64,000 nucleotides of DNA from Haliotis rufescens (taxonomy: Eukaryota). A program made the translations under genes and the position numbers. Positions 17,001-50,000 of this stretch are shown piece after piece. Where the stretch lies: positions 1,364,001 to 1,428,000 of the forward strand of contig NW_025963990.1 in NCBI RefSeq assembly GCF_023055435.1, given 5' to 3'. Under the pieces are notes generated by a model. It had not been told where the DNA came from. It searched no databases and saw only the letters and a program-made list of their open reading frames with translations. Position 1 is the stretch's first letter, and every line of letters starts with the position of its first letter.

Positions 17001-20000
17001 GACCATCTTATGAACCTACACATTGAAATCACCAGAAATGGACAAAACTGGCTATAGGGCAGTCATCAAGTACCTGCACCTGAAAGGGCTAACTCCAACA
17101 CAGATACATGCTGCCCTGGTCTGCACTTTAGGGGATGATGCCTCTTCTTTTTCCACCGTAAAGAAGTGGGCTGCGGAATTCAAGCGTGGCAGAGAGAGCC
17201 TTGACGATGACCCGCCTCCAGGAAGGCCTTCAACAGCAACCATTCCGGAAAACGTTACCCGGATGCATGACATGGTGATGGCTGATCGACGATTGACCAC
17301 TCGACATATTGCCAGTCTTGTGGGCATCTCTCATGAGAGGGTTGAGCACATTATCACCAACAAGTTGGGAATGACAAAAGTTTCTGCAAGATGGGTGCCA
17401 AAGCTTTTGACAGCGGTTCCGAAACGTGTCAGATTCCTGACGTCCCGTGACAATTTATGCCGTTTTGAAGCAGATCCCGATGATTTTTTAGCCCGATTTG
17501 TAACCATGGATGAGACCTGGATTCAACCAGAAACCAAAATTCAGTTAAACAATTGAGGCATCCGGAATCACCAGCCCCCCCCAAAAGCCAAGTTGGTTCC
17601 TTCTGCTTGAAAGGTGATGGCTTCAGTCTTTTGGGATTCCAAGGGTATTCTTCTGATTGACTATCTTGGAAAAGGCCAGACTATCAATGGAAGAGTGAGT
17701 GAGTGAGTGAGTGAGTTAGTGAGTGAGCATGGTTTTACGCCGCTTTTAGCAATATTCCAGCAATATCACGGCGTGGGACACAGGAAATGGGCTTCACACA
17801 TTGTACCCATGTCAGGAATCGAGCCCGGGTCTTCGGCGTGACGAGCGAACGCTTTAACCACTAGGCTACCCGACCGTCAATGGACCGTCAATTATATCAA
17901 TGGAAGATATAATGCTGACCTACTGAGACAGTTTCGTGAAGCTATCAAAGCTAAGCAACGGGGAATGCTCAATAAAGGAGTCCTATTCCACCAAAACAAT
18001 GCTCTTGTTCACAAATCGGGGGTTGCCATGTCAGCGATCCATGATTGTGCCTTTGAACTCATTGACCATCCCCCTTATTCACCCGATTTGGCCACGTCAG
18101 ACTTCCACCTGTTTCCAAAAATGAAAAAGGAACTAGCCGGTCGCCAATTTCCTAGTAATGATGACGTCATTTCAGCTGTGAATGACTTTTTTAGGGTGGC
18201 CGAAGAAAATTTCTTCTTGCCCGGCATCCACGCCTTGCAGCATCGCTGGCAAAAGTGTGTAAACCTGGAAGGGGACTACCTGTAGAAATAAATGAAAACC
18301 ATCGACTTGGTACGGATCTTTCACAGTAAGGCTTAGAGCTTTTCAGCCAGCCCTCGTACATGAGTTTTTATGTTGTGATTAATTATTAAATATGACCTCA
18401 GTGTTACCACAACTCAGCAGTATTACCTTCAAAGAAAACATGTGAATCGAAAACGTCTGATGCCATTGCAAATATGCAACATCAGCTACAGTACATCATT
18501 TCCTACCGAAAGATTATAGTGACGTGAAAATATTAAAAATATGACAAAATTAGGTTTCTTTGTGTTGGCGAAATTTACCCAACTATTTGTTAAGTTAAAA
18601 TGTTTCTTGTTAAATCACTAAAAGTTGCAATTTCAAGTTTTATTTTTGTTTATTCAACAGGACCAAAAGGGGTACACATTTTGATAATGACCCATATGCA
18701 GTACAGGATTACCTGTCTACTTTTCTTGGATCACTCCATTCTAATACTTAGGTAACACGGGGTAGACCAGCCAGTGCCTTCACCCATGACCTATGTTGTT
18801 TTAAGGTGTGTGACAAATGGGACGTGTAACTAATGGGAGGATACCAGAGGAGCTTATACACACTCGATGACCCCAGCAAGCGTGTTGCTAGGCTGACGTC
18901 ACATGGCATTGTTTCGCCGATGGATCTAGCAACAAAATTCCACAAATTACGTCAGCAGGTATTGTGACGTGATTGTAAACTTTGTGGTGCAGGGTCCCGT
19001 TCCACAAGGCGATCGTACTGTAGAGCAAAGACTGTAATAAGTCTATGTAGATGTTACGATAACCTTAGCGCTACGATAACTTTGTGGAACGGACGCGTGA
19101 ATTCTAAAGGTGGGCCGTTGAATATTATTAAATTAATACGTTTCAACTTTGAAGTATTACCCTTTTAAACTCAATTGGATTATGCCGTGGATCGTGTAGG
19201 TGTCAGCCTATTTACACATGACAGTATAATTCTAAAAACGTTATATATGTCAAGCAATAAATAAAATAAATAATAAATAAAATACTAAACTCGCTCCCGT
19301 GTAAAACCAACTTTATTGGAACTCGTGAATAGTTGGGGTATTTGACCCGCTTTAGCTTGTCAGATACCACAACTATTGACTCGTTTCATAAAATTGGTAT
19401 TAAAAACATTTTCATAATCACATGACATTTCTACTAAAAGTTTGTTGTACAGTTCCGACAGTATCATGAGCTTGTAGTTATTAATCACTATCAAATAGTG
19501 ATGATATCAGGTGTTCTAAAAAATATGTGTATCCTTCAAAGGCAAGTCAATTGTTTCGCCTGAGAAAACACGGGAACGTATGGTTCAAATCAAACCCAAG
19601 AGACGAACACTCAACCTTATCTGGCAGCTCCTCCAGTGATTGCCTGAAACCATTTATCATGTTAGCAAACGAGAAGTCTCCTCTGACGATACTAAAAAAC
19701 AGGTCCAGACTTTTGCCTAGAGCGCCAGCAGCACCACCTTTAACAGCATCGTAGATCTCAACCAGTCTCTTGAGGTTGTCCACGCCGTACTCCTGCAACA
19801 GGGAAATGTAGAAGTGCACAATTTAAAGTAAACCCTAAAAAGATATCTTTGCAAATCACATAATTACATGAATAAGACATATTCTCTTTTAAACATGTTG
19901 TCAGATTTAATTTGATCTGATATTATCCTTGTCGGCATTTTGACTATGAATTGTCTTCCCATCACACTGTAGGGCACCAGACCTCTTGACTAATAATGCA

Positions 20001-23000
20001 ACTGAGCATATACATATAATAATGATTCAAACTAGAACAGGACGCTAGACATTGAAAACATTATGGGTAAACTCTTCAAATGGTAAACACAAGAGAGAGA
20101 ATTTCTATATGATGAAGAACACCGCGTTTCGCTGTATATGCTTACTCCTTCATTAGGTGAATGAATACTAGGACTCAACGAGCATATAATATGTACACAT
20201 GAAGATAAAAGTAATAAGATAGTAAAGGTGGAAAGGTTAACGAACGAAGTCAGCAGTTAATTAGCGCCCATTGGTGATTAGAAATGGACAAATGGAAGTC
20301 AGGAGTTCAATTAGAATTGTATAATAAGCTATGGTCAATTAGAGGCAGGGGTTAAGTACACTGATTTGTAATTAGCAATGGACAAATGAAAGCCAGCTGG
20401 ATGAATAAGAGTAGTTGGTAGCCCCGTTCTGGAACCGCTCCAGGCTTCTGATTGGGCGGTTTCTGTGATGACGTCACTTCCGGTTTCGGTTTTGTCACGT
20501 GCCTGCGCATGCGCGAAGGTGGCATTGTGGGTCATGTGCGCGCATCCAAGATGGCGACACTTCCGTTTCAGGTGGCGCGTGCCTCCAAGATGGCGGCATT
20601 TCCGTTTCTGGGAGGCGTGCCCACATCCAAGATGGCGGCACGTCCGTTTCCGAGGGGCCATCTCCCCATCCAAGATGGCGACACGGCGTCTCCAAGATGG
20701 TGGGAGGAGGGAGGGCGGGATGACGGGTAGGCGGGAGGAGGGAGGAGGTTTTTTTGTTTTTTTTTCGGTTTGATGGGTGTGTGGGTGGGTGGGTGGTTGT
20801 GGTGGTGGAGAGGGTAGTCAAGGCAATGGATGAAAGCGTTCTTTTGGGAGAGATGGGTGGCCCTGAAAAGGGACGTTTTGTAGAAGAAGTAGATTACTTC
20901 TTCTCCCACAAAGGGGCTGTTCTACAAAGGCAGGGATGGCCTGCCACCTGTCTCCTGACAGGACACTTACTGGTGTGGCATAGTCGCCGCACGTAGGTGT
21001 CCTTCAGGACAGTGTTCCAATAGATGCACTGAAATGTGCCATCGTGTTCCCTTGTGCCATGCGCATAGACTGGCAGGCACCCTTTGTACTTATTGCATTG
21101 CCATGGAGGAATGTGTTCCAAGTCCCAGCGGCAGTCTTTGCACAGTGTCAAAGGGTGCGCAACTGAAACCAGATCCAAATCCCAATTTTCTTCATTAGTT
21201 TGCATGATGATGACGATCTCATGGAATGCAGTGTGAGTGGCTTCGCTCTTGTTTTACAGAAAAGGGACTGACACCCTGCTTCCTGATTGGTCCAACACGC
21301 AGCGCACCGATTGGTTCCTTCCGGTGCCTGGTCTGAGTCTCAGTTTTCAAAACTGGACCGACCCTTGTGTCTCTTTTTCATAGGAAATGGATTTTACCAT
21401 GGGAGAGAAAGCACAACTCGGCTCGGGTGCTGTCTTTTGATTGGTCGGTGCTGTCTTCTGATTAGTCGAAAACCCAAGCCTCTGATTGGTCAGGTTTCGA
21501 TCCTGTTTTGGGGAAGGTTTGTCTATAAATCAGACGTTCAGTCAATCTTATAGTGCAGACGTTCATCAGGCACTCATCGCCATTATGACGAGCAAGCAGA
21601 ATGATACGTACCATTTGCAGAGGAAAGACACAACTCGACCCAGATGGTTAAGAACCATACGTATCGTTTGACATTCAACCCAGACTACTTGGAAACCGTA
21701 CCCCCGGACCGCGTCCCCATTGAACTGCCGTCTTTATTTGACAGGGTGATCGATGACTGTTATCAACAGATGTCAGGCCAGAAGCGGGATCGTACTTGTC
21801 AAGATATCGACCACCCCGCTGTGAACACTCCCATACGGATTCCCTTTCGGCGCTTTGAAGATCTTCATTGCCTAGATATCTTGCATGCTGTGGAAAAAGT
21901 CCAACAGTCCAACAATGCCACCATGGTTGTGACTTCAGTACACGTAGCAGATCCCGACAGGCTAGGATCAACGACAACGTAGACGACGATCCTGATGGAG
22001 AAGCTCAACTCACTTCCATGCAGCGTGAATGTAGTGCCTATCGCCACAACAATAAGCTGTAACAGTGGTCAAGTGATGTGTCATCTCTGTTTCAGGGAGG
22101 CCATAGACTGTACCTATTTTACTGATGAGGCGTCCCAAACATGTTTGGAACCTATTTGGGTCAATATGATGAAGGACCATATCTTATGGTGACCCCATCT
22201 TCACTCGAAGAGGCTGAACATGAAAGAGGAAAGGTTTCGCGTTGTTGTAGGGACATGCAAAGCACTCCCTCCTCAGTTGTCTTTTCGCATTTCCTATGTA
22301 TCTGGTTGTTCTTGTTGTTCATTATTAAACATTGATTGATTGAACTGACTCTTTGTGTCTTGATTGGTCTCGAATTCAATAGGGTGCTGAACCGAGGGTA
22401 GAGGCTGAGTTGAGTTTGTCAAGTTTGTGCACATGCTTGTTGAAAAAGTAAAGAATTAAAAGATAGATAAAATAGATAAAAGAGAAAGGACATGCTTGAA
22501 AGATCAGCTGCCTGGTGTCAGTCATCCCAGTACTTCACATATGACGTCAAGTGGTGATAATGATAATGATGAAGAGGTCATTTCCTCCCCGTCCCCTGTC
22601 TGTCATGTCTGTGCACATGTTCGTTGTAAAAGTTAAGAAAAAAATATAGAAAAAAATAGATAAAAGAGAAAGGCCATGCTTGAAAGATCAGTTGCCTAGT
22701 GTCAGTCACCTAGAACACAGGATAGAGTCTTATCACATCGTCAGTGACACGCAAGATTTCATGGAGTCCACATCGTGTTCAGACTGTTGTAAGACATTTT
22801 CTAGAAGAGATGTCTTACTTCGTCATAAAAAACACGTCCATGGCTTATCACCAACACTATCACCTATGAGACCAGAGACATCACCGTCGCCTCCGCCGCT
22901 GCCGCGGTGTATGGGGAAAAGACGGTGTATGAATGCCATGCCACCATCAGGGATGTCCCGATACCGAGTGGGTTTCTGAAAAGGCGAGAGAAGAAGGACG

Positions 23001-26000
23001 AGGTGACCGTGTTATCTGTTATTGCTGCGGTGTGACACTCTGCCAATGGAAAGCCACAGACAAACCCTGGAAGGAACATCTGAAGCACGCCAAAGTCCCC
23101 TGCGAATACTTGTGTGTGTTTTGTCCTGATGGAGAAGTGAACGAAAAATACAGACGTTTGTTGTCTGAAGAAGCACAGAAGAGAAGAGTGGAGTGTCTTG
23201 TTCACTCCTAGTGACAAAGTTTCCTGTTCACTACGTTTTTAGGAATGTACAGACGTACAAACCCTAGTGGCTTATCACCTAGTGTTCACAAAAAATCACA
23301 GGTACGCCCCTAATCCTGTGACTTTTGTTTTGTTCTGTTGGTTCACGTGAGCGGGGGATTAAACAGTTGAACAAACATAAGTGTTGTGTTGTCTTTTTTT
23401 TTAGGATGAAGAAAAATAACAAAATAGGATCGAAATGCACACCCAAGAAAAAAAAGGATCGAAGTCTGACCAAACAGTGACCGAGCTCATATCGTGCTGG
23501 GCTCTGATTGGTCGAACTGAGGTTGTGCTTTCTCTCCCATGGTAAAATCCATTTCCTATGGAAAAGAAACACAAGGGTCGGTCCGTTTTGGAAAACCGAG
23601 GTGCAGACCAGGCGCCGGAACGAACCAATCGGTGCGCTGCGTGTTGAACCAATCAGGAAGCAGGGTGTCAGTCCCTTTTCTATAAAACAACAGCGAACCC
23701 ACACACTGTATTCAATGAAATCAACTATGTCGTCTCGACACAGCTGCATGAAGTGTCAGACCGACAGTCACAGTTACCTGTACTGCCCTGAAGTGACATG
23801 TACCGAGTGCCACACTCAAGGTCACCGCCACTATGTCTGTCCGAGGATAAGCAGTCAAGATAAGCAGAAAACTCCCCAGGGGCCATGTCAAAACTGTCAA
23901 GTCGTGGGTCATTTCGCTGCAGATTGTCCAGAATCCAGTCGAAAGAAGACTTCCCAGGGCCCATGTTACAACTGCCAAGTCGTGGGTCATTTCACTGCAG
24001 ATTGCCCAGAGCCCAGTCGAAAGAAAACTTCAGCAGCGCCGTCCATGTCGACACCGGTGACACCAGTGACACAAGTGATACAAGTGCTTCATCTCATAGA
24101 AGTCATGCATATCGATGTCCGTGCCCTAAAAGAATGCATCGCACATCTCCACGCGGGCATCACACCTCGTCTAGGGAAAAGAAAACGGGACAGAAGCCCC
24201 TCAAGAAAGCACCCTTCAAAGCGCCAACGACGTCATCAGTCTGAGGAGGAGGAGGAGATGGAGGATGAAGGAGATAGATAATCTGAGCAAAGTGACTAAC
24301 GAATGGGACCTGCTGCTCCACTGTTTTTCCAGTTTCCAATCGTTTCCAGTTTCCAGTTTTTCCAGTGTTCCTACATTTTCCTGCTGTTTCCAGTTTCCAG
24401 TTTGTTTTCCAACGGCCCTTTTTAGGGCCACCAATCACTCCCGAAAGAACGCTTTCATCCATTGCTTTGACTACCCTCTCCACCACCAACCCCACGCATG
24501 ACCCACAATGCCCCCTTCGCGCATGCGCGGTCACGTGACGAAACCGAAACCGGAAGTGACGTAATCACAGAAACCGACCAATCAGAAGCCAGGAGCGGCT
24601 ACCAACTACTAATGAGCCTTGAGGGATAGATGGTGGCACAGATTAATTAATCGATTCCCAAGTCCCAAGTTCTAGGTTCCCTGGTCACGGTTCATGGCTG
24701 GCAAGTATCACCCGATATCAATGGCGTCTTGTAGTTTCATTTGACGTCAGTTGTTGTTGGTGTTGGATAGGACTTTGGTAGCTTTCCACATGATGGTATG
24801 GTCTTGGTTCTGATGAGGGCCCTGGTAGGGTGTGGTGATTCTGAATAAGTGATTGAGTATGGTGTTACAGTGCTAGAAATAGTCTTCACACATTTTACTC
24901 ATGTGGGGAATCGAACGTCGGCTGCGAGCGAACACTTTAACCACTGGGCTACCCCCACCGTTTGCGTCTTGATTTGGAGTTCTTGGGGGAGAAGGGTAAC
25001 TGTTGAAGGGAGTGAAGGGTTTCTTGAGAGCATCAGGATGGCAAACAGATTTAGCACGTCGGGTGAGGCTGGCGATGATAGCTTGTTTTATCTTGGGATG
25101 GTGGCAAGAGTTGAAGTGGATGTACTGGTCTATGTGTGTGTGTCGTCGTGCGGTACACTGATGTTCTTAGGCCATCATCTGTGGTTTGGAGGTACACGTC
25201 TAGGAAGGGAAGTTGTTGATTACTTTCGGTCTTCATGGTGAACTGGACTCTCTGGTGTTGGGTGTTGAGATGTTTGAGGCGCTCTGTCAGTCGTTTGGTG
25301 GGCTATGGAGGTGAATATGTCATAACATACCAGCAGAGGGGATTTACTTTGTTCTTCTTAATAAAGAAGTTCTATTAATGCTCTCTCTTATGTAGGAAAG
25401 ATAAAAGGTACACGTTACATGTACATGTTCACAGGATGTGGGTAATTCACTACATGTACTCGTTATCCTGGTTTACCATAAACGTACAAATTGTGGTATT
25501 CCTAAATTGCAGTGTGAAGTCAAGAGGAATAGTTTAAAGTGAGAAGACTTAGGATGATTTTAACAGTTTGGGAGCATTTGAGATATGCCATTTGAGATGT
25601 GCCTGTGGCATTTGAGATGTACCATATCTTAAATGCCACAGACAAAAGCTGTTTTTTAACTTTTAACTGATCAGACTAGATCACACAGAAGTGCGATTTA
25701 TCAGGCTGCTTTGTCAAGTCACCTGCAGCATGTTAAGGTTGTAAGCAGCCCCTCCCTTGAAGCAGATCCTCGCCGAAAAGAAATCCTGGTTGATGCCCAT
25801 GAAGCCAAGGTGGATGCGGGCGTATGCTTCATCGTGGATGTTCACTCGCATGTGTCCACTCAGAGGCGCTGTAACATGCAGTGATCATATGCAGTATATG
25901 TGGATGAAAATCATTTGTTCCATGATTTGGAGGAACATGAAATACACGAAATGTTTCAAACTGTCCTTATGTGGAGAGATAGATAATTTGAAAACTCGGA

Positions 26001-29000
26001 GATCCCATAACTTCATTTCCAAGAAACACTTCAAACGAAATGATTTAGTTTGTGTTCAGATTGATTTGGATTGCATTAACACTAATTCCATGTTTGGTTA
26101 TTCGGCCAACGTTTTCAAATGTCAACCTAACATTACAATTAATGATGTCTAATAATCTGCAATGTAGTCTGAATCACGTAAACAATAATAAATACTTATT
26201 AGCGATTTTATTTTAAACAATGTTGACACAAAATAACGGTGAAAACATGAATGTCATTGACACGAGCATACCTATTTTGAAGTCTAAAGCATTGTTCATG
26301 GTCAGTCCAAAGGACACTCCAATGGTTGTTGACCCAAGCATCTTCTTCCAGTCTACGCTGGGTGATGGCAGTTTGAACTCGATCTTCTCATCAAAGAATC
26401 CCCTTTTGTGTCGGTCGTGTACGTCAATGTCCCGCCGGCCAACATAGCGAGGGTCCACGTGAAAGAAAGATCCATTTATGGCTCTGAAATGTATGTATAC
26501 ACATGCTCAAAAGTTAAGCGCGACCATATTCATAGTCTCTTTATTTCACGTGTGGGAATCAGAAATACGAAATATGATGATGTATGACTGAATGAGGCTT
26601 CCATAGTTTCTTGAACCCAAATTTGTCCAGATACCACAAGGAAAGCATGCTTTACGTGTTGCTGCAGTTCCCCTACCCTATAGCGAAATTCAAGTTTCAG
26701 ACACGTGGTTGCATTTTGCTCCTGTGTGAGATTCCCCTTCCAATAGAGGTTGAAAATCAGCCATGGTGAGGAGAAAGTTAACGAACGCTGAAAGATGGCA
26801 AGTGATAGGCATGAAAAATGCTGGCATGTCATGCAGGGCTATTGCAAGACAAATGGGTCGTCATCACAGTGTTATCACTCGTTTGATTGTCAAACATGGT
26901 CAAACCAATGATGTCAATGACAGGCATAGGTCTGGTAGGCCAAGAAAGACCTCTAACAGAGAGGATAGATGTCTTTTCAGGATAGTCAGACGGAATCGTC
27001 TGATATGGTGTCGTGCCCGTAGTCGATGGAACTTGGCGAACTGGAGAAGGATCCATTGCTCTGACGAGTGTCGAATGCTGCTACGAACTGTTGATGGTCG
27101 AATACGTGTTTGGAGGCAATGTTACACTCGTTTTGCACCAAGAAACATCAAGAAGACCTTAGCATGTGGCGGGGGGTCTGTCATGATATGGGGTTGTGTT
27201 TCCTTCGGCTGCAAAATTCCGCTGGTGACAATTCGTGGAAACGTGAATGGCCAACAATACCACGATGCCGTTCTTCGTCCAGTGGTAGTCCCTCATTTTG
27301 ACAACCATCCTCTTTAGACAAGACCTGTTTATATGGACGACAATGCTAGACCACACAGATCTCGGGGAGTTTTCGCTTATTTGCGTCAAGAAGCTATTGC
27401 CACTCTTTCTTGGCCGGCCTGTAGTCCGGATCTTTATCTGATTGAGCATCTCTGGGACATTCTTGGCCGGAAAATCAGACATCGTGATCCCCCAGTTCAA
27501 AATCTCGCTGGACTTGAAGCCGCACTTCATGGAGAATGGATCCGTTTGCCTCAGAGAAGCATTCAACGACTTGTAATGAGTATGAGGCGTAGGCCTGAGG
27601 CTGTGGTCAATGTCCGTGGATCATACACACGTTACTGACGTTTCTGTCTTGCAATAGACTCTGCACTCCTCAGGGTGTCTATGTGACACCCGATATGGTC
27701 TGCTGATATCATTCAATGTTTTCTAATCCTTCAATTTCTGGTCTTCGGTAAAATTCCTTTTTGCTCATATTCTTTTGGAACACAAGATAAACTTGCTTTG
27801 GGACAACTTTTGCATCACATGAGGTTTACATATACGGCTTGTAACAATCGTACATCTCGTTATAATAGTCATCATTAAGTGCCAAAAGTAACAGCTCACA
27901 AATATGGTGGGTGGCGCTAAACTTTTGTGCATGTGTATATATGTCAGGTTTAACATCGTGTTGAACAATTTTTCAGGTGCGTATAATCACATCGTTACAA
28001 ACTACATCATCGCCCCACTGAAGTACTGGTCAACGTGCAATCCATATATGCTGGTACAAGAGGTCAACGGGAATGAGTTGTTTAACACATAAATGTTTTC
28101 AACATGTACCCTTCTTTTCTGTACATGGGAGCGATTATTGCGGCCTTTGGGTGGGCCTGGTATTGTAGCAGAGCTTCATATCGGACCTCCTCGTCGTCAT
28201 CGTACAGGGCTGTCTTCAACATCAGATGTGCTGCCTGCAACAGGGGATATATCAACCATACATACATGCTGTCTTCAACATCAGATGTGCTGCCTGCAAA
28301 AGGTGATATATCATTCATACATGCATAACTGCCTTCAACATCAGACGTGCTACCTACAACAGGGAATACAGCATGCAGACATACAGGCTGTCTCTAACAT
28401 TACATGTGCTGCCTGCAACAGGGAATATATCATGCATACATAGAGGCTGTCTTCAACATCAGATGTGCTGCCTACAACAGGGAATATATCATGCATACAT
28501 ACAGGCTGTCTTCAACATCAGATGGGCTGCCTGCAAAAGGTGATATATCATTCATACATGCATAACTGCCTTCAACATCAGACGTGCTACCTACAACAGG
28601 GAATACAGCATGCAGACATACAGACCGTCTTCAACATTAGCTGTGCTGACTGCAACAGGGGATATATCATTAATACATGCATTACTGTCTTCAACATCAG
28701 CTGTGCTGCCTGCAACATGTGATTTATCATTAAGACATGCATAACTGTCTTCAACATCAGATGTGCTGCCTCAACAGGGGATATATCATTAATACATGCA
28801 TTACTGTCTTCAACATCAGATGTGCTGCCTGCAACAGGGAATACAGCATGCAGACATACAGGCTGTCTCTAACATTACATGTGCTGCCTGCAACAGGGAA
28901 TATATCATGCATACATAGAGGCTGTCTTCAACATCAGATGTGCTGCCTACAACAGGGAGTATATCATGCATACATACAGGCTGTCTTCAACATCAGATGT

Positions 29001-32000
29001 GCTGCCTGCAAAAGGTGATATATCATTCATACATGCATAACTGCCTTCAACATCAGACGTGCTACCTACAACAGGGAATACAGCATGCAGACATACAGAC
29101 CGTCTTCAACATCAGCTGTGCTGACTGCAACAGGGGATATATCATTAATACATGCATTACTGTCTTCAACATCAGCTGTGCTGCCTGCAACATGTGATTT
29201 ATCATTGAGACATGCATAACTGTCTTCAACATCAGATGTGCTGCCTCAACAGGGGATATATCATTAATACATGCATGACGGTCTTCAACATCAGATGTGC
29301 TGCCTGCAACAGGGGGTATATCATTAATACATGCATAACTGTCTTCAAAATCAGATGTGCTGCCTGCAACAGGGGACATATCATTCATACATACATAATC
29401 GTCTTCAGCATCAGATGTGCTGCCTGCAACAGGGGATATATCATTCATACATACAGGCTGTCTTCAACATCAGATGTGCTGCCTGCAACAGGGGATATAT
29501 CATTAATACATGCATAACTGTCTTCAACATCAGATGTGCTGCCTGCAACAGGGGATATATCGTTAATACATGCATAACTGTCTTCAACATCAGCTGTGCT
29601 GCCTGCAACATGTGATTTATCATTCAGACATGCAGACTGTCTTCAACATTAGCTGTACTGCCTGCAACAGGGTATATGTCATTCATACATAGAGGCTGTC
29701 TTCGACGTCAGATGTGCTGCCTCAACAGGGGATATATCATTAATACATGCATAACTGTCTTCAACATCAGCTGTACTGCCTGCAACAGGGGATATATCAT
29801 TCATACATAGAGGCTGTCTTCAACGTCAGATGTGCTGCCTGCAACAGGGGATATATTGTTAATACATGCATAACTGTCTTGAACGTCAGATATGCTGCCT
29901 GCAACAGGGGGTATATCGTTAATACATGCATAACTGTCTTCAACATCAGCTGTGCTGCCTGCAACATGTGATTTATCATTCAGACATGCAGACTGTCTTC
30001 AGCATTAGCTGTACTGCCTGCAACAGGGGATATATCATTCATACATACAGGCTGTCTTCAACATCAGATATGCTGTCTGCAACAGGTGATATATCATTCA
30101 TACACGCATAACCGTCTTTATCATCAGATATGCTGCCTGCTATATCATTAATACATGCACAACTGTCTTCAACATCAGTTGTGCTACCTGCAACAGAGGG
30201 TATATCATTAATATATCTATGTCTTTTACATCTTTAACATCAATGTACTATCAACACCACGAAACATATAATTCATACAAACATGACTGTCCTCAACATC
30301 AAATTTGATAAATACAACAGGGGATATATTCTTTGCATTTATTATGCCTCAATGTGAGATTGACCAATCAGGGAGAAGCACTACAAACCCCATTTGAGCC
30401 CGTATACCGTCAGTAAAAATCCAAGATGGTTGTTATTGACCTAATATGAGACCGTATACCGTCAGAAACAGCCTGTTTGAATTTTCCAACACCAACCTCA
30501 CATATTTCACATATTTCATTTATTCTGGCACGGAAATTCGTTATTTGACACTATTTTGTGTTTTAATATCATTAATTGTGATGTGCAGTAACGTTATTAT
30601 TAAAAAATATAGAGAAAAAAACTTACAATGGAGATCACTGAGTTACAAATAGCAACGTCATAGAACTTATTATACGATGACGTCACAAACAAGAAACGTG
30701 ACGCAAGTTACGTCACATAGAAATAGAATATAGACAGCAGCCGGTCGTTAGGGAAAAGCGGACTGCTATCAAGTTACAATGGCCCGCAGATTTCTGATAA
30801 CATTCGGGCAATGTTTTGAATTCTATCCACTTTAGCTATTATTCTTGTTTGAACGTTCAGATTCAGTGCATTATATATTCCATTGATAACGTTTGTGATT
30901 ACATTAAAACATTAAATCGGAAACATATGTATTGGTCCTGTCGTTTATACCGGATGTCCCTGTCAAGTTTTCAGTTTGACATGACTATTGAGATACCAAA
31001 TAGTGTAAACCTTTCGGCATCATAAATTCGTTATGGTGTCTTTAGTTGCCGTAAACGGTGTCAAATTAGGTTAGCAGAAATATATTGGGCGAGGTCGTCC
31101 TTTACATTGCTGAGACACTTCACATCCTCGTCTTGATTCCACCAGTTTGTTTTCATAATACTTCATGCATTAAAATATTCGCGTCTGTTATTATTGTCTT
31201 ATACAATATTGTGATACACCGAATCCTAAGATCCATCATCAATCAGATTTTAAATGTTGAAGGAGTACAACTGGGAATTGTCATTGTCAAAAAATATGTT
31301 CAAATTTTCCTATTTGAGCTGCTTCTATATGACCACGGAACTTTCTTATCGCCTTGTAGTACGCAAGATACTTACATGTTTAGTTTAAGTAAAAAAGATA
31401 CTCAACATTCTGTAGTAAACAGAACCAAATGTATAAAACATTTAAATCATTTATTGAAATACCCAATCTTTAAAAATTAAAAGTTGTTGACAAATCGTTT
31501 TCAATACCCCTTCGTGTCGGTACTTCCTCATGGCGTGAATCCCCGCTCGCTTCACCCACTGAGAGTTGGTGGTGTTGACATGTGACACAATCATCTCAAA
31601 TGATTGGTCGAGACCGGCATTACCCAGAGATCCAAGCAAGATAACTCTCCAGCGGTCGTCATCAAGGACTTCACGCTCTGTCATGGTTGACCGTTTCTGA
31701 CGGAACAGCCAGGGATCTGGAACAAGTAATTCTCACCTGGATCATGAACATGAACTCTGTGAGTTAGTGATTGTGGTCAGCAAGCGGCAGAAATACTCAA
31801 GCTATGCCACAGTCTACAAAGAATCGAGTTACTCACAGGCAAACCAATGACTAAGATAAACAACGGCCCCCAGCATAGGGAACAATGTACGAACAATCGT
31901 GCGTGACCACTGAATTCTCTCGACATTCAGGTGGTACTGGATACCTATGTTTACCCGGAAACCCTTTGGTGTGCACATTGGGAAGTTCTTTGTCTGCACT

Positions 32001-41000: not shown

Positions 41001-43257
41001 ATGGCGGCGGCTCCCTTCTTCATGGCAACAGCTTCATCGTCGTCGTCGGGAGGGTGGTAGACGCGGAGAATCTCGCCATGGGGCGTGATCACAAACGAGA
41101 ACCTGCGAGATACAGTTTCAATGTAGACATGAAGATCTGATATATGTCATGGTCAAGCCTGACACATCTTGAAGACATGAGTTTTCGGGAACTGTAAAAA
41201 TATTATTTGCGATTGTTTGCATTTATCCTGTCTTCTTTAAGACGTTGTCTCACCTTCACGAAAGGTAGGAATTACAACGTCCTTCCCCAGACTGGAGGTG
41301 ACGCTACACCGCGCAGGATTGCTTTACCACGATGATAGCTGTAAACCTTATGATGCAGTATAAACTCACTTTATCACTCCCTCCCTCCCTCATTCACCCA
41401 TTGCCATACTCTTGCTTTCTAGACACGATAAACACCTTGGATATATATTACATTTCCGTCAAAGCCCAATACATTTCTACTTCAGATCACTCCTGCAATG
41501 AATATGGGCGATCATATATTAACACGTTTACACGCTTTTTGTATTGTCTTTTACCATTTTGAGAAGTCCAAACGGTGGTCGATGGTGTCTGAAAAGAAAC
41601 AAGAAAAAAAACTGTTTATACAGTAGATTGCGGATATTCTGTAACACGACAAGAAAGGCAGTATAAACCTTAAGGAGAAGCTAATGCTTCGAGACAACCG
41701 TGTTCGAGATATATGTTTGGTTAGCAGCTGAATCATTCGGCTTCCCCTTTCACAGCAACAAACTGAATCATTCGACTGCCACTAACACAGCAACAAACTG
41801 AATCATTCGACTCCCCCTTACATAGCAACAAAGTGAATCGTTCGGCTTCCCCTTTCACAGCAACAAACAATACAACCTGTATTGTATATTGTCTGTCAAA
41901 TATTGTGTATCAAATAACTAATGTTACGTGCCATGTATATTCGGCAACGCCTATCTGAGGCATTCCGTGTTCTGTCATCCATGTATCCCCAGACTGTAGC
42001 AGCGTCTTGGGGCTTGAGTAACATTCCCTTCACTATACATAGCCAATAATAAAGACACACATGTCTTCCTGGTTGATGTTAAATTACAACAAAGTGAATC
42101 GTTCGGCTTCCCCTTTCACAGCAACAAACTGAATCATTCGACTGCCACTTACACAGCAACAAACTGAACCATTCGGCTCCCCCTTACATAGCAACAAAGT
42201 GAATCGTTCGGATTCCCCTTTCACAGCAACAAACTGAATCATTCAACTGCCACTTACACAGCAACAAACTGAATCATTCGTCTCCCTCTTACATAGCAAC
42301 AAAGTGAATCGTTCGGCTTCCCCTTTCACAGCAACAAACTGAATCGTTCGTCTGCCACTTACGCAGCAACAAATTGGATCGTTCAGTTCACCCTTACAAA
42401 GCAACAAAGTGAATCGTTCGGCTTCCCCTTTAACAGCAACAAAGTAAATCGTTCGTCTGCCTCTTACACAGCAACAAATTGAATCGTTCAGTTCACCCTT
42501 ACAAAGCAACAATGTGAATCGTTCGGCTTCCCCTTTCACAGCAACAAAGTAAATTGTTCGTCTGCCACTTACACAGCAACAAATTGAATCGTTCAGTTCA
42601 CCCTTACAAAGCAACAAATTGAATAGTTCAGTTCACCCTTAAAAGCAACAAAGTGAATTGTTCGGCTTCCCCTTTCACAGCAACAAATTGGATCGTTCAG
42701 TTCACCCTACCAAGCACCAAAGTGAATCGTTTGGCTTCCCCTTTCACAGCAACAAATTGAATCGTTCGTCTGCCACTTACAAAGTAACAAATTGAATCGT
42801 TCGTCTGCCACTTACGCAGCAACACAGTGAATGGTTCGGCTTCCCCTTTCACAGCAACAAAGTGAATCATTCGGCTGCCACTTACAAAGTAACAAATTGA
42901 TGGTTCGGCTGCCCCTTTCCTGGTTTACATTAACTTTGGTGAATAGCCCCAGACTTTCATCAGACTGTACCTATGTCTTGCCTGCGTTTAACCGTATTGG
43001 CGAGTGGGGATAGTATTAGTAGCAGCAGCAGCAGCAGCAAAAGCAGCAGCAGTAGTAGTAGTAGTAGTAGAAGTAGTAGTAGAAGTAGTAGTAGTGGTGG
43101 TGGTGGTATTAGTATAAGTATTAGTATTAGTAGCAGTAGTAGTAGTAGTAGCAGCAACAGAAATACCAATAGTAGTAGTGGTGGTAGTAGTATTGGTATT
43201 AGAAGTAGGTATTAGTAGTAGCAACAGTAGGAGTTGTAGCAGCAGTAGAAGAAGTAA

Positions 43258-44033: not shown

Positions 44034-47000
44034 AAGGAGCAGCAATAGTAGTAGAAGTAGCTACCTTCTGTGTGTTTGGTCTTCAGCCCTAGAGCATACA
44101 TCTTCACGTAGACCTCTTGTCCGCCCCCTCTATCACCAACGTTGATGTAGCCGACCTGAATGATAGACACAAGATGATGACAGGAGGATGTACAGGAGGA
44201 GTTTTGATTTTTTACTCGTTACTTCGATTATGTTCTCAAAATTTCAACTATTGTCTCGAAATTGTTTTAAGTAAACTTGAAATAACGAGACAATAATCGA
44301 AATTATATCAAGGCAGCCTTTTTTATAATCGAGTATAGTCTAATCAAATTCAGAAACACCTAAATATCTAAGACGGCGAGAAGTATACTTGTAAAACAAG
44401 AACAGTGGTAACGGTCTATGACCTGCGTCACTTCGGACTTTCCTCCACATTTTAGCTGCACGCCGGTATATAACCGTTACTGAAATACTGTTCAAAGCGT
44501 TTCCCCACACTCACTCACTGTTTGTCATAACTCGATTGATAACTCCATGCATTCTTACATTCGTTACAAAATATCACCTTGCCTAACACATAAGAAATTG
44601 GATATCACGTGTACTTGAACAACAGGAGTCTGTTTGCCCTAGGATACACCTGATCAGACACGTTGGGTAGACGCAAGACAACTTCCTGCTAGTTACGTTT
44701 CAACTGGCACCCTGAATGCATTGGGAGGTAAAATACAGAGCTCGTGTTGTATAGCGTAATAATGGGGCTTGTCCCGGTCCACAAAGAACAGAACAGAATA
44801 GAACAGAAGTTTATTGTAGAGTGAAATTCACAAATTTTAACGTCGCAAGGGCAATTTTCCAGCCATAGCTCGACGATCCTATGATATTTAATTATGTAAA
44901 TAATGTTAAACCTTTTTTACAGAACTGAGCCAGTTTTACTAGAATGGGTTTGTATGAACATTTCATTAATTGATTGTATTTTAGAGTTGAGGGATATTTA
45001 GTATAGTATGCCGGAAGGTATTGTTTTCGAAGGTTATTTAGTCTTGGACATACTAATAGAAAGTGAAATTCATCTCCAATTTGGTCGTTACATAAAGTGC
45101 AAGTTCTCTCTGTTCTCTGTATGTTAAACCATCTGCCTTTCTCAATTGGTAGTCTATGATTTTTTCTCAGTTTAAGAATCCAGATTGCTTGTTTAAATGG
45201 GAGAGATAATAGATACTCATCAAACTGTGGTTTGTCTTTTAGCATTGTATAATATTTGCCTTTAGATGAAGAACAAGCCTTGACATTCCAGCTTTGATAG
45301 AAGTTGTCTATTAAGGTTTGTTTAATGTTTGTTTTAAGCCAAGAGAGATTTAGAAAAGAGTTAGTATCGAAGACAAAATTCAAACCAGTTTCATATAAAA
45401 TTCATCGCGATCGTGATGCTGCAGCTGTCCTAAGTCTAAGGCTCTATAGGGTTACTTTGCCCTCTTGGATCAGGAAGAATAACACTCATAATAACATTCT
45501 AATTCTAGAATGGGAATACATTTCCGAAAGTTTTCATGTAAATTTGCACCAGGTGTAGGTTTAGGTGTATATGTAGGTGAAGGTGTAGGTGAATGTGNNN
45601 NNNNNNNNNNNNNNNNNNNNNNNNNNNNNNNNNNNNNNNNNNNNNNNNNNNNNNNNNNNNNNNNNNNNNNNNNNNNNNNNNNNNNNNNNNNNNNNNNNNN
45701 NNNNNNNNNNNNNNNNNNNNNNNNNNNGTGTAGGTGTAGGTGTAGGTGTAGGTGTAGTGTAGGTGTAGGTGTAGGTGTAGGTGTAGATGTAGATATAGAT
45801 GTAGGTGTAGGTGTTGATGTAGGTGTTGGTGTAGGTGAAGGTGTAGGTGTTGATGTAGGTGTTGGTGTAGGTGAAGGTGTAGGTGTAGGTGTTGATGTAG
45901 GTGTTGGTGTAAGTGTAGATGTAGGTGTAGTGTAGGTGTAGATGTAGATGTAGGTGTAGGTGTAGGTGAAGGTGTAGGTGTAGGTGAAAGTGTAGATGTA
46001 GGTGTAGGTGTAGGTGTAGGTGTAGGTGTAGTGTAGGTGTAGGTGTAGGTGTAGGTGTAGGTGTAGATGTAGATATAGATGTAGGTGTAGGTGTAGGTGT
46101 TGATGTAGGTCTTGGTGTAGGTGAAGGTGTAGGTGTAGGTGTAGGTGTAGGTGTTGATGTAGGTGTTGGTGTAAGTGTAGATGTAGGTGTAGTGTAGGTG
46201 TAGATGTAGATGTAGGTTTAGGTTTAGGTGTAGGTGTAGGTGTAGGTGTAGTGTAGGTGTAGATGTAGGTGTAGGTGTAGATGTAGATGTAGATGCAGGT
46301 GTACTTTTAGGTGTATGTGTATACGTAGGTTTAGGTGTAGGTGTGGATGTGGATGTTGGTGTAGATGTAGGTGTAGGTGTGGGTAAAGGTGTATGTGTAC
46401 ATGTAGGTGTGGGTGTGGGTGTGGGTGTGGGTGTGGGTGTGGGTGTGGGTGTGGGTGTGGGTGTGGGTGTGGGTGTGGATGTTGATGTTGATGTTGATGT
46501 TTATGTTTATGTAGGTGTAGGTGTAGGTGTAGATGTAGATGTAGATGTGGNNNNNNNNNNNNNNNNNNNNNNNNNNNNNNNNNNNNNNNNNNNNNNNNNN
46601 NNNNNNNNNNNNNNNNNNNNNNNNNNNNNNNNNNNNNNNNNNNNNNNNNNNNNNNNNNNNNNNNNNNNNNNNNNNNNNNNNNNNNNNNNNNNNNNNNNNN
46701 NNNNNNNNNNNNNNNNNNNNNNNNNNNNNNNNNNNNNNNNNNNNNNNNNNNNNNNNNNNNNNNNNNNNNNNNNNNNNNNNNNNNNTGTAGGTGTAGGTGT
46801 AGATGTAGATGTAGATGCAGATGTAGATGTAGATGTAGATGTAGATGTGGATGTAGGTGATGGTGTAGATGAAGATGTAGATGTAGATGTAGATGTGGAT
46901 GTAGGTGTAGATGTAGATGTAGATGTGGATACAGATGTAGGTGTAGATGTGGATGTAGATGCAGATGTAGATGTAGATGTAGATACAGATGTAGATGTAG

Positions 47001-50000
47001 ATGTAGATGTAGATGTGGATGTAGGTGTAGGTGTAGATGTTAGGTGAAGGTGAAGATTTAGATGTAGGTGTAGATGTAGGTATAGGTGTAGGTGAAGGTG
47101 TAGGTGTAGGTGTTGATGAAGGTGTAGGTGTATGTGTTGGTGTTGATGTAGGTGTAGATGTAGGTGTAGTGTTGTGTCGGTGTAGATGTAGATGTACGTG
47201 TAGGTGTAGGTGTATACGTAGGTGTAGGTGTAGGTGTAGATGTAGATGTAGATGTAGGTGTAGTTTTAGGTGTAGGTGTAGATGTGGATGGGGGTGTGGA
47301 TGTGTGTGGGTGGGGGTGGGGGTGGATGTGGATGTAGATGTGTATGTAGATGTAGATGTAGATGTAGATGTATATGTATATGTAGATGTAGGTGTTGGTG
47401 AAGGTGTTGGTGTAGGTGTAGGTGTAGGTGTTGGCGTAGATGTAGGTGTTGGTGTTGGTGTTGGAAAAGGAAAGGGCCCTATGGAGATGTCTGTGTTTAA
47501 TTGCTATTGTAATATTAGCCAACTAAATGAGAATTCCAATGTGATGTGTGCCTGGCTGATTGTGTATCACTGAACCCCATGGGGTACCTCGATGCTTATG
47601 CTATCAACCTCTGGTTTGATAAGACTGTTCTCGATTAGCAAAAGGCTGCCTTGACTGCTGAATGGACAACAAAAAAGAAATTCAGTGAATGGAATGTTTG
47701 GGAGATCAGTTGATTTATCGACCATTAACTATGATCAAGCGTCGACTTGATTTGAGAAGAAAGGCCGAAGTGACCTATATCAACGACATTTTTGGAAATT
47801 GAAATGAGTTTGGTTAAACGCCGCTTTCAGCCTAACTAAGATATATTATGGCAATCAGTTTTACCTAAGAGAAAATGCAACGTCATGTCACAGACGCTCA
47901 TCACAAACATATTGGATTTACGATTCAGGTATTCAGGTAACTCACGACCAGCAGATCCTTGCACGACTAAGGGACGCAACTGATCATAGCGGACGTTAAC
48001 ACGTTCCCTCCAGAAGTACACTGTTCAGCTGCGCCTACAGTCAACAGCTGGTGATGTGTTCCGACCCTTAAGACTTGCGTCGTGGTAATTTAGACATGGT
48101 AGATTATTAACACTCTCTGTGTATTTAGCATTCACAATCTGTACATATTTATACAGAGCTCATTTCATTCACTAACCAACCTCACTCACATACTGTTAAA
48201 TGTTTTGTCAATGCTGTCTCAGTTGCAGACTCTAATAACTGACAGATGTAGAGGGCCCTTTAAGGTAAACGAATACTGAGAAATGGATGGAGTAACTGTT
48301 TACACAAATATGAATAAATATAAAGTAATGCATAGTCGATAAATGAACTGACGGAAACAATTAGCATTCACACTGGCCTGGGGACGACTATTCTGCTTCA
48401 TCTCAACAAACCGACATCCGGTGTATTTAATGTCATTACTGCAAAGGAATACCCGGTGATGCACGGGTAGATTTGAATCTAACGTCAATCATTTCCTTTA
48501 GGCCTATTCGCTTATGTCTTCCTATTAGTATATTTTGATTATGAAAACGCGGAATTAGAAAAATAAGCAATGTGGAAATAAAATAGGACTCAACAACTCA
48601 CCTTGGCTAACACTTGAAAATCTCCAATGTTTTTCACACTTGCATTGGGATCTTACTTGTACTGGTACTCAAACCCCGGTTCAAAGTTAATGAAACTTGA
48701 AGAAGCACATGTCAATAAAACAACTATTCCACAAATTGCCGGAAAATGATTTCCCGGCATTTTTTTAAGAATAAGTCCTTTTTTCTATTTTTGTGTCGCG
48801 TCTATATGCTTCAGCGATGTCTTACATGACTGCACAAAGTTGCAGCTCAATTCTACACACATGGACATGTGCTGTGTGATTGGGTCAGGGAAACAAGGAA
48901 GTTGATTTATGTGTAGATATAGTTGTCACGGGACCCTGCAGCACGCTGTTTTATTCAACTAATTCTGTTACAAATCTCTAGGGAAGACACGACAAAAACT
49001 TAAATGATATCAGTCTGAACATGTGCTCACCATCAATGATCTTATTCATAGCGGCGGTTGCGCTCGACACATCATCTTAATAATAGTACAATTCCAACTA
49101 TGTAATGAGCATGTGTTTTTATGAATCACTATCAAATAGTGATGATTCTCCAGCAACCCATGCTTGCCGTAAGAGGCGACTAACAAGATCCGGTGGTCGA
49201 CTTGCTTGATAAATGTCATCGTGTCCCAATTGCGTCTAACGATGTCAATTTCAGGATTGTTTTGAGTGCGGCGTTAAACACCAACCAAACAGAGACAAAA
49301 TCTCAGTAGTGTTGTGCTTGAAGTTAATGACACAATTTCTTTTCTACAGGTTAAGGCACGAACATCATGTATGGCTCAGTGTAACGGACAGTCTACCTGA
49401 ATTCTACATGCATCTTATGAGGAAGAGAAACAAACTATGGTTTTCCAATCATTAATGATTGCATCTGCTTGGAATTAAATAATCGTATGTGAGAAAATAT
49501 TAAAAACGTAAGCCAAGACAGAAATGTATCAGGAATATAAATGTGTTTTGACACTCTCTGATTAAATGTTTAGGTAGCACAAACAATGATGCTTTGAAAA
49601 GGAAATGGCCCCATGGAGATGTCGGTGTTGAACTGCTATTGTAATACACTCACGTGCAAAAGAAACGTCCCCAAAGTTAGAAATATATTATAATTGTTGA
49701 ATATAGTCAAAAACATGAAAAACAGTTCGGAACACATTGCCCAAACACACCAATGCAAGGCATCTCAGGGAAATTCACGTGCTGCATGTCAGAAGCGGTT
49801 AAAAATGACTTTATTCAATGAAATTGACTGCACGTGCAGGATATCACCCGTATGAAGATCGGTTATAAAAACCCGTTGGAAACTGTTCTTTGCACTAATC
49901 AACGTCTGAAAAACCTGCAGAACATGCCTAGATTAACTGTGGAAAAGAGACAAAGAGCGATTGGAATGTTGGAGATGGGGGCAACTCACGACCATGTTGC

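Follow-up and report, generated by a model that had tools for sequence, protein, structure and literature searches.

Introduction

Polinton/Maverick elements (adintoviruses, polintoviruses) are bounded by terminal inverted repeats with AGTAGT-type ends, are flanked by a 6-bp target duplication and encode a protein-primed DNA polymerase B (PolB), an rve integrase with a chromodomain, an A32-like ATPase and capsid- and protease-like genes. In general terms the group is marked by AG(T)-repeat ends and target duplications of 5–8 bp. A survey that includes mollusc Polintons, one of them from Haliotis, describes the elements as 13–25 kb long with their core genes together, and accepted a locus only if it had five core proteins inside 20 kb (10.1101/2023.08.22.554363); this requirement would therefore miss a pair of the type reported here. 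We analysed a window of 64,000 nucleotides (nt) from the abalone Haliotis rufescens (assembly GCF_023055435.1, contig NW_025963990.1, positions 1,364,001–1,428,000), in which a 4,201-bp Maverick/Polinton derivative lies at 20410–24610 (window coordinates throughout), together with its relatives in the same genome. The family shares all the features listed above, but its polymerase and integrase reside on separate 10–12-kb elements, which we term class A and class B, whereas known Polintons are single molecules of 13–25 kb. We found that the two classes carry complementary gene sets and insert separately. That they act as segments of one bipartite, mutually complementing Maverick is a reading to which we give an even chance.

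Two described systems come close to such an arrangement. Bidnaviridae (Bombyx mori bidensovirus) and Drosophila Vesanto virus are described as segmented, with a Polinton-derived PolB, matching segment termini and, in bidnaviruses, a proposed apoptosis inhibitor (PMC4061559, PMC8363768). According to these descriptions they have single-stranded DNA, parvovirus-type capsids and no integrase, whereas the abalone family is integrated and has the whole Polinton gene set distributed over two molecules. Cheating has been predicted to yield multipartite genomes where complementation is free, with two shorter genomes, each without a shared product, replacing the complete one (PMC10159356). Classes A and B resemble multipartite viruses in their matching termini and complementary essential gene sets; they differ from that scheme in being endogenous and inherited, with co-presence guaranteed. 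In the literature searched, which lay outside subscription journals and Repbase, no bipartite or complementing Maverick was found, and the accessible text of PMC11161782 mentions no split Polintons. Homologues of inhibitor-of-apoptosis (IAP) proteins are described as accessory genes of adintoviruses (PMC8502044); their occurrence in Mavericks has thus been published before.

Two classes with complementary gene sets insert separately

Class A elements were 11.4–12.6 kb long (about 11.7 kb) and comprised, besides a left gene for a BIR (IAP-type) domain, which runs on the opposite strand, the polymerase, a pair of uncharacterised open reading frames (ORFs), a right BIR gene and a CCHC ORF; older copies also carried an ATPase gene headed by a C2H2 finger. 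Class B elements, which measured 10.0–10.5 kb in 10 of the 13 resolved copies (about 10.3 kb), held an ATPase, several small ORFs, an integrase with a chromodomain, minor capsid, major capsid and protease genes. The gene sets were thus complementary, overlapping in the ATPase gene of class B and older class A copies. No integrase, capsid or protease match was present in 18 long polymerase-bearing copies (16 of class A layout and 2 variants), and no polymerase was present in 21 integrase-bearing 20-kb class B regions.

The class A polymerase is a protein-primed PolB, with PF03175 above the cut-off and the expected motifs. The class B integrase matched rve (E = 6e-12) and Chromo, and integrase was lacking from class A and from the window alike. 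The ATPase scored above the cut-off for Pox_A32. Matches to Capsid_N and Peptidase_C5 were weak (E = 0.06 and 0.035) and the minor capsid protein had no Pfam match; the capsid and protease genes are therefore putative, being assigned from these weak matches together with motifs and a comparison with a complete Maverick of the same genome, whose corresponding genes stand in the same order and are 34–53% identical. Catalytic motifs were found in natural open frames.

The ends were resolved in 9 of 18 class A and 13 of 21 class B copies, one class B end being probably miscalled. Perfect 6-bp target duplications flanked seven of the nine and nine of the thirteen, respectively. Because copies of each class are flanked by perfect duplications of their own, each class inserts as a separate unit. 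Variant elements (L121-L123, L133-L135) were also observed, which carry the family polymerase, one other ORF and no BIR match between terminal repeats of 1.2–2.6 kb, with target duplications.

A one-piece copy was found only as remnants

Each gene search scored 40 candidates, of 56–72 for class B genes and of 143–171 for the polymerase, in one assembly. Not one of the 40 closest polymerase matches had any of 40 integrase matches or 40 capsid matches less than 25 kb away, the nearest being at 222 kb; as a control, an integrase match lay within 8 kb of 27 of the 40 capsid matches. Four further searches, making seven queries in all, brought the sample to 63 class B gene loci and 95 polymerase loci. 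Four of the 63 were near one of the 95, with 4–6 kb between the matches and class B genes 84–90% like the query. Polymerase scraps were found in 3 of 19 further integrase loci for which 10 kb upstream was read, and another region held both gene sets in pieces. Where measured, mixed loci were at most 90% like the query, and among 26, 26 and 29 matches at 95% identity or more none was co-located with genes of the other class. Among the loci scored, polymerase, integrase and virion genes belonging to one 13–25-kb molecule occurred together solely in deleted remnants.

In non-autonomous derivatives of DNA transposons and Polintons, genes are normally lost by neutral decay and a complete helper exists. 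The window copy fits this description fully, with its ends kept, its interior deleted and mobilisation in trans; classes A and B differ in keeping complementary gene sets and in showing selection on capsid and polymerase. Even so, A and B could be non-autonomous deletion lineages of an unseen full-length parent (unassembled, polymorphic or exogenous), with no dependence on each other. We hold this explanation to be possible, at about one chance in three. It gains from the one-piece remnants, from the scoring of only part of the candidates, from the swarm of smaller deletion forms and from the report that most vertebrate Maverick copies are defective (PMC8097293). It is opposed by the lack of any full-length copy among the closest matches of the seven queries and by the uniform sizes of A and B elements.

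Terminal sequences interleave while ATPase genes sort by class

Over the first 300 bases, median identity was 84.5% between A and B ends, 85.2% among A ends and 83.6% among B ends, and the best A–B end pairs reached 94–95% over 300 nt. In a tree of 22 ends the A and B labels were interleaved, changing six times (at least four of them forced), and 116–132 of 500 label shuffles gave values as low. The ATPase genes (8 A-type and 16 B-type) sorted by class, with two changes and none of 500 shuffles as low. Since the ends interleave while the ATPases sort by class, the two trees fit two long-lived lineages that exchange ends. Repeated fresh deletion from a single parent, as an unseen helper would supply, predicts intermixed ATPases instead.

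The first 8–25 bases of the terminal repeats varied between nearly all copies, yet matched between the two ends of one copy (37–40 of 40 bases in most). These bases may form a hypervariable terminal tag that is homogenised at replication.

Variants shared between copies point to purifying selection

Pooled pairwise ratios of nonsynonymous to synonymous change (pN/pS) were 0.29–0.51 for eight genes, against a neutral yardstick, allowing for transition and CpG bias and computed for three genes, of 0.62–0.75. In the capsid gene, pN/pS was 0.09 for variants common to at least two class B copies versus 0.58 for singletons (p = 2e-5), and in the class A polymerase it was 0.26 versus 0.40 (p = 0.03), indicating purifying selection on capsid and polymerase variants that are shared between copies. 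Such strong constraint on capsid variants common to class B copies speaks against an unseen full-length parent, although recombination with that parent could bring signs of selection in. Open frames were retained by 7 of 18 protease and 8 of 16 ATPase copies.

Contigs from three probable RNA runs, each from a different study, covered a class A stretch in 30 of 30 bins and a class B stretch in 21–29 of 30. A 342-base GT–AG joint in class A (L076:4870-5213) appeared in contigs of all three runs. At this position 15 long class A genomic copies hold 330–346 bases, and the joined form occurred in none of them; its absence from genomic DNA supports real spliced transcripts. A small-RNA run gave 9 and 6 reads and was uninformative.

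Interpretation as a bipartite Maverick

We propose, with evenly divided confidence, that within an animal germline a double-jelly-roll DNA virus/transposon, endogenous there, has divided into two segments, one for replication plus IAP and another for integration plus virion formation. Judged by established Polinton biology, the class A polymerase would prime and replicate both classes from their shared terminal repeats, the class B integrase would insert both and thereby produce the 6-bp duplications, and the class B capsid genes would package both. The single-BIR proteins might delay apoptosis, keeping the cell alive during replication. With dozens of A and B copies in each germ cell, co-infection and complementation would be free; two shorter, complementary cheats could displace a full-length parent because co-infection costs nothing where every germ cell holds dozens of each class. 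The further proposition that the segments swap ends, are mutually dependent and have taken the place of a one-piece parent, with the intermediates kept as dated fossils, stands for us in equal balance.

Several observations weigh against this interpretation. Pieces of both gene sets were found at at least seven loci, all short, deleted or scrambled; because these remnants hold polymerase and class B genes together, they show that this genome once housed a one-piece ancestor, whose BIR genes followed the ATPase and the protease. A full-length copy might have escaped scoring or assembly, or might reside on another haplotype, in other animals or in exogenous form, and since each search scored 40 candidates the absence of a complete copy is not proven. 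Smaller deletion forms are abundant, as they are in any non-autonomous swarm. The contrast between shared and singleton variants was not significant for the other six genes, the integrase, ATPase, protease and either BIR among them, and shared stop columns indicate that some sharing of variants arose by duplication. Most frames are broken, with open ones in 2 of 16 polymerase, 5 of 21 integrase and 5 of 19 capsid copies. The RNA nature of the three runs is a guess, with no DNA run as control, and no particles or free DNA were observed. The median terminal-repeat mismatch was 0.039 in B (n = 13) versus 0.004 in A (n = 9), so that the sampled B copies look older, in samples that differ in kind: A copies were picked by polymerase score and B copies for their resemblance to a degraded one.

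The genome also contains two further Maverick families whose gene sets are full, and these might help in trans. The mutual fit of A and B might then reflect common descent, with A borrowing integrase and capsid, and B polymerase, from these families. The identical terminal hexamer of one of them and the differing ages of the sampled A and B copies agree with such borrowing. We regard it as improbable, at little above one chance in ten: the ends of that family, the only further complete one in which they were resolved, match A and B ends no further than the hexamer, while end variants at 94–95% are common to A and B, and the proteins of the nearest family are only about 50% identical.

If the bipartite interpretation is true, the family would represent a split genome among viruses so far known solely in one-piece form. 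It would also be a natural record of a multipartite origin in which parent remnants, both cheats and gene-less parasites coexist; as remnants and cheats can be dated side by side, the cheating hypothesis would become testable. Surveys that demand polymerase and integrase together would miss such pairs, and more may therefore hide in animal genomes. In a scan of IMG/VR with the class B capsid protein, three stretches fitted the pattern and none encoded a relative.

The zinc finger–BIR stretch is a deletion product

The window had drawn attention through an initial annotation that described, inside a transposon, the C-terminal half of a BIR motif preceded across a frameshift by a C2H2 finger and a proline-rich linker, and that took this zinc finger–BIR order for an architecture of the element. 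The finger and linker occupy 22761–22910 on the plus strand: an ATG at 22761 starts a frame containing C-x2-C-x12-H-x4-H (22776–22841), followed by the linker. A separate frame, with its stop at 23209–23211, encodes the BIR half, which belongs to the broken single-BIR gene BIR-R (22911–23211, plus strand) and matched PF00653 at profile positions 32–69 of 70 (E = 8.8e-9, 36.2 bits, cut-off 22.9). The BIR half was hence borne out by Pfam in the HMMER check that had been suggested; the finger was legible as a motif and, alone, fell under the Pfam cut-off (best E 0.073), while the finger of a sister copy reached 25.1 bits against a cut-off of 25.2.

The described frameshift is real, being a shift of one base near 22957. 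It is ruled out as the sole lesion by a further deletion of about 200–220 nt at 22996/22997. At that point 159–224 bases absent from the window were present in all 23 measurable loci of 29 others (two of the 23 being one genomic copy), and sister copies reveal that the missing bases include the N-terminal half of the BIR. BIR gene copies in the genome gave at least 72 matches, with 40 of 187 candidates scored.

Among 30 finger-bearing loci, an ATPase match came next in 19, a direct BIR join in 6 and neither in 5; in 3 of the 19 the ATPase match begins less than 100 nt from the finger, and in 8 of them a BIR comes after the ATPase. Direct reading of four loci showed finger, linker and Walker A motif within a single open frame, and in one copy (L108) Pox_A32 scored above the cut-off behind the same finger. 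The finger is accordingly identified as the N-terminus of the element's A32-like packaging-ATPase gene, the body of which is deleted in the window. Other copies thus have finger and BIR as separate genes, and reconstruction from them, as the annotation had advised, recovered no intact zinc finger–BIR frame, which is the outcome that the annotation had itself named as refuting its view.

Five of the six direct joins, that of the window included (22903–22911, plus strand), share one in-frame junction from the linker to the ATG of the BIR gene, which in the least altered copies leaves 150 nt from the finger ATG to the BIR ATG. A native or selected fusion protein could be read from this in-frame junction and its copying to five loci. 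We consider that very unlikely, as an in-frame join is expected by chance one time in three, none of the five copies has finger and BIR both whole, 14 of 15 long class A copies retain the plain BIR gene as an open frame, and the finger heads in-frame ATPase ORFs in the four loci read directly. Because the finger belongs to the ATPase ORF, the junction is shared and no copy is intact, we conclude that the zinc finger–BIR order is an ordinary deletion product, a single in-frame deletion passed to a few dead copies.

The same C2H2 finger also heads another, different ATPase, which lies with fragments of integrase in a tandem array (L118-L120, L147-L149); the finger module appears to have moved between Maverick lineages.

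BIR genes are cargo of the element

The view that the BIR is cargo of a virus-like element was upheld, as a listed BIR lies within 6 kb of 27 of the 40 closest polymerase matches. In an unbroken sister copy the BIR matched PF00653 with E = 3e-20, the family to which single-BIR IAPs of viruses and the BIR domains of host IAPs belong, and was a complete domain with CCHC zinc ligands; the window copy is incomplete. A C-terminal RING is typical of baculovirus and XIAP-type IAPs, and the element proteins differ in having none, the BIR being the sole Pfam family in both element BIR proteins. BIR-R also differs from them by an additional residue between its last His and Cys. The best solved relatives of the element BIRs were BIR domains of NAIP, XIAP (BIR2), DIAP1 and cIAP; a search for homologues of BIR-R gave one protein, too few to bear on its origin.

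A BIR phylogeny of 37 rows and 73 columns placed the right BIR in a clade of its own (100/100), with the sampled multi-BIR host-type genes apart from the element clades. The tree held no herpesvirus or baculovirus BIRs, and 73 columns are too few to settle its deep forks or a donor; of the proposed comparison it covers sampled host-type sequences. The suggestion that the element disperses IAPs is true in a narrow sense: it multiplies single-BIR genes, and multi-BIR genes of host type, where sampled, do not belong to its clades.

PF00653 yielded 539 candidates in the genome, and at least 58 of the best 150 lay within 16 kb of a listed polymerase. Public records label close relatives of both element BIRs as XIAP-like, BIRC-like or DIAP2-like. 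A large share of the BIR genes of this genome is Maverick cargo named as host IAPs in public annotation, and IAP expansion in abalone, and perhaps in other molluscs, may therefore have been overcounted.

Both other complete Maverick families carry a single-BIR gene, one behind the ATPase (L137-L138), the other behind the protease (L139-L140, L250); the family with its BIR behind the ATPase has C2H2 fingers on its polymerase. Further short single-BIR ORFs (L287-L290, 112–141 amino acids), of which the 112- and 117-residue frames recur widely and two lie near polymerase matches, are probably cargo of more Maverick families. One public gene model (P0133) joins a BIR similar to the left BIR of the element (94% over half of the query) to a C-type lectin domain, which may be a real capture or an annotation join.

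The window element and its surroundings

The placement of the BIR half within a transposon was confirmed by the inverted AGTAGT/ACTACT ends and the 6-bp target duplication, whose left (20404–20409) and right (24611–24616) copies agree at five of six bases. The left terminal inverted repeat (20410–20880, plus strand) starts AGTAGT and contains short tandem units; the right one (24411–24610, minus strand) terminates in ACTACT. Their paired arms are 20435–20536 with 24497–24598 (93%) and 20790–20877 with 24411–24498 (89%). A repeat of about 200 bp, putatively promoter-like and preceding gene units in both classes, lies at 21215–21417 on the minus strand, with a second, inverted copy at 23522–23722 on the plus strand.

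The other remnants are on the plus strand. A broken 5′ piece of the protein-primed polymerase, about 130 codons (21585–21961) with the remainder deleted, was 72% identical to a family polymerase (tblastn), and PF03175 was found in sister copies. It is followed by class A sequence outside the core genes, which surrounds the 3′ part of the uncharacterised gene orfB (21971–22533; blastn to class A copies) and, beyond the finger and BIR-R, by a small ORF with CCHC zinc knuckles (23727–24281; PF00098, E = 5e-10) that belongs to class A only. The window copy is a dead deletion derivative of a Maverick/Polinton that kept its ends and lost its interior. Close relatives of its family's proteins are labelled Haliotis; for the class B capsid protein they include relatives at 97% in H. 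cracherodii and 74% in H. asinina.

A direct duplication of 111 bases (87%) was found 5′ of the finger, at 22414–22524 and 22598–22708, and also in some sister copies; it may be the promoter of the ATPase gene. The element is flanked by remnants of Tc1/mariner-type transposases with helix-turn-helix (HTH) and DDE_3 matches (17014–18285 and 26754–27317), and tandem arrays with units of 59–60, 35 and 6–12 bases occupy 28060–30330, 41600–43000 and 45500–47500 of the window.

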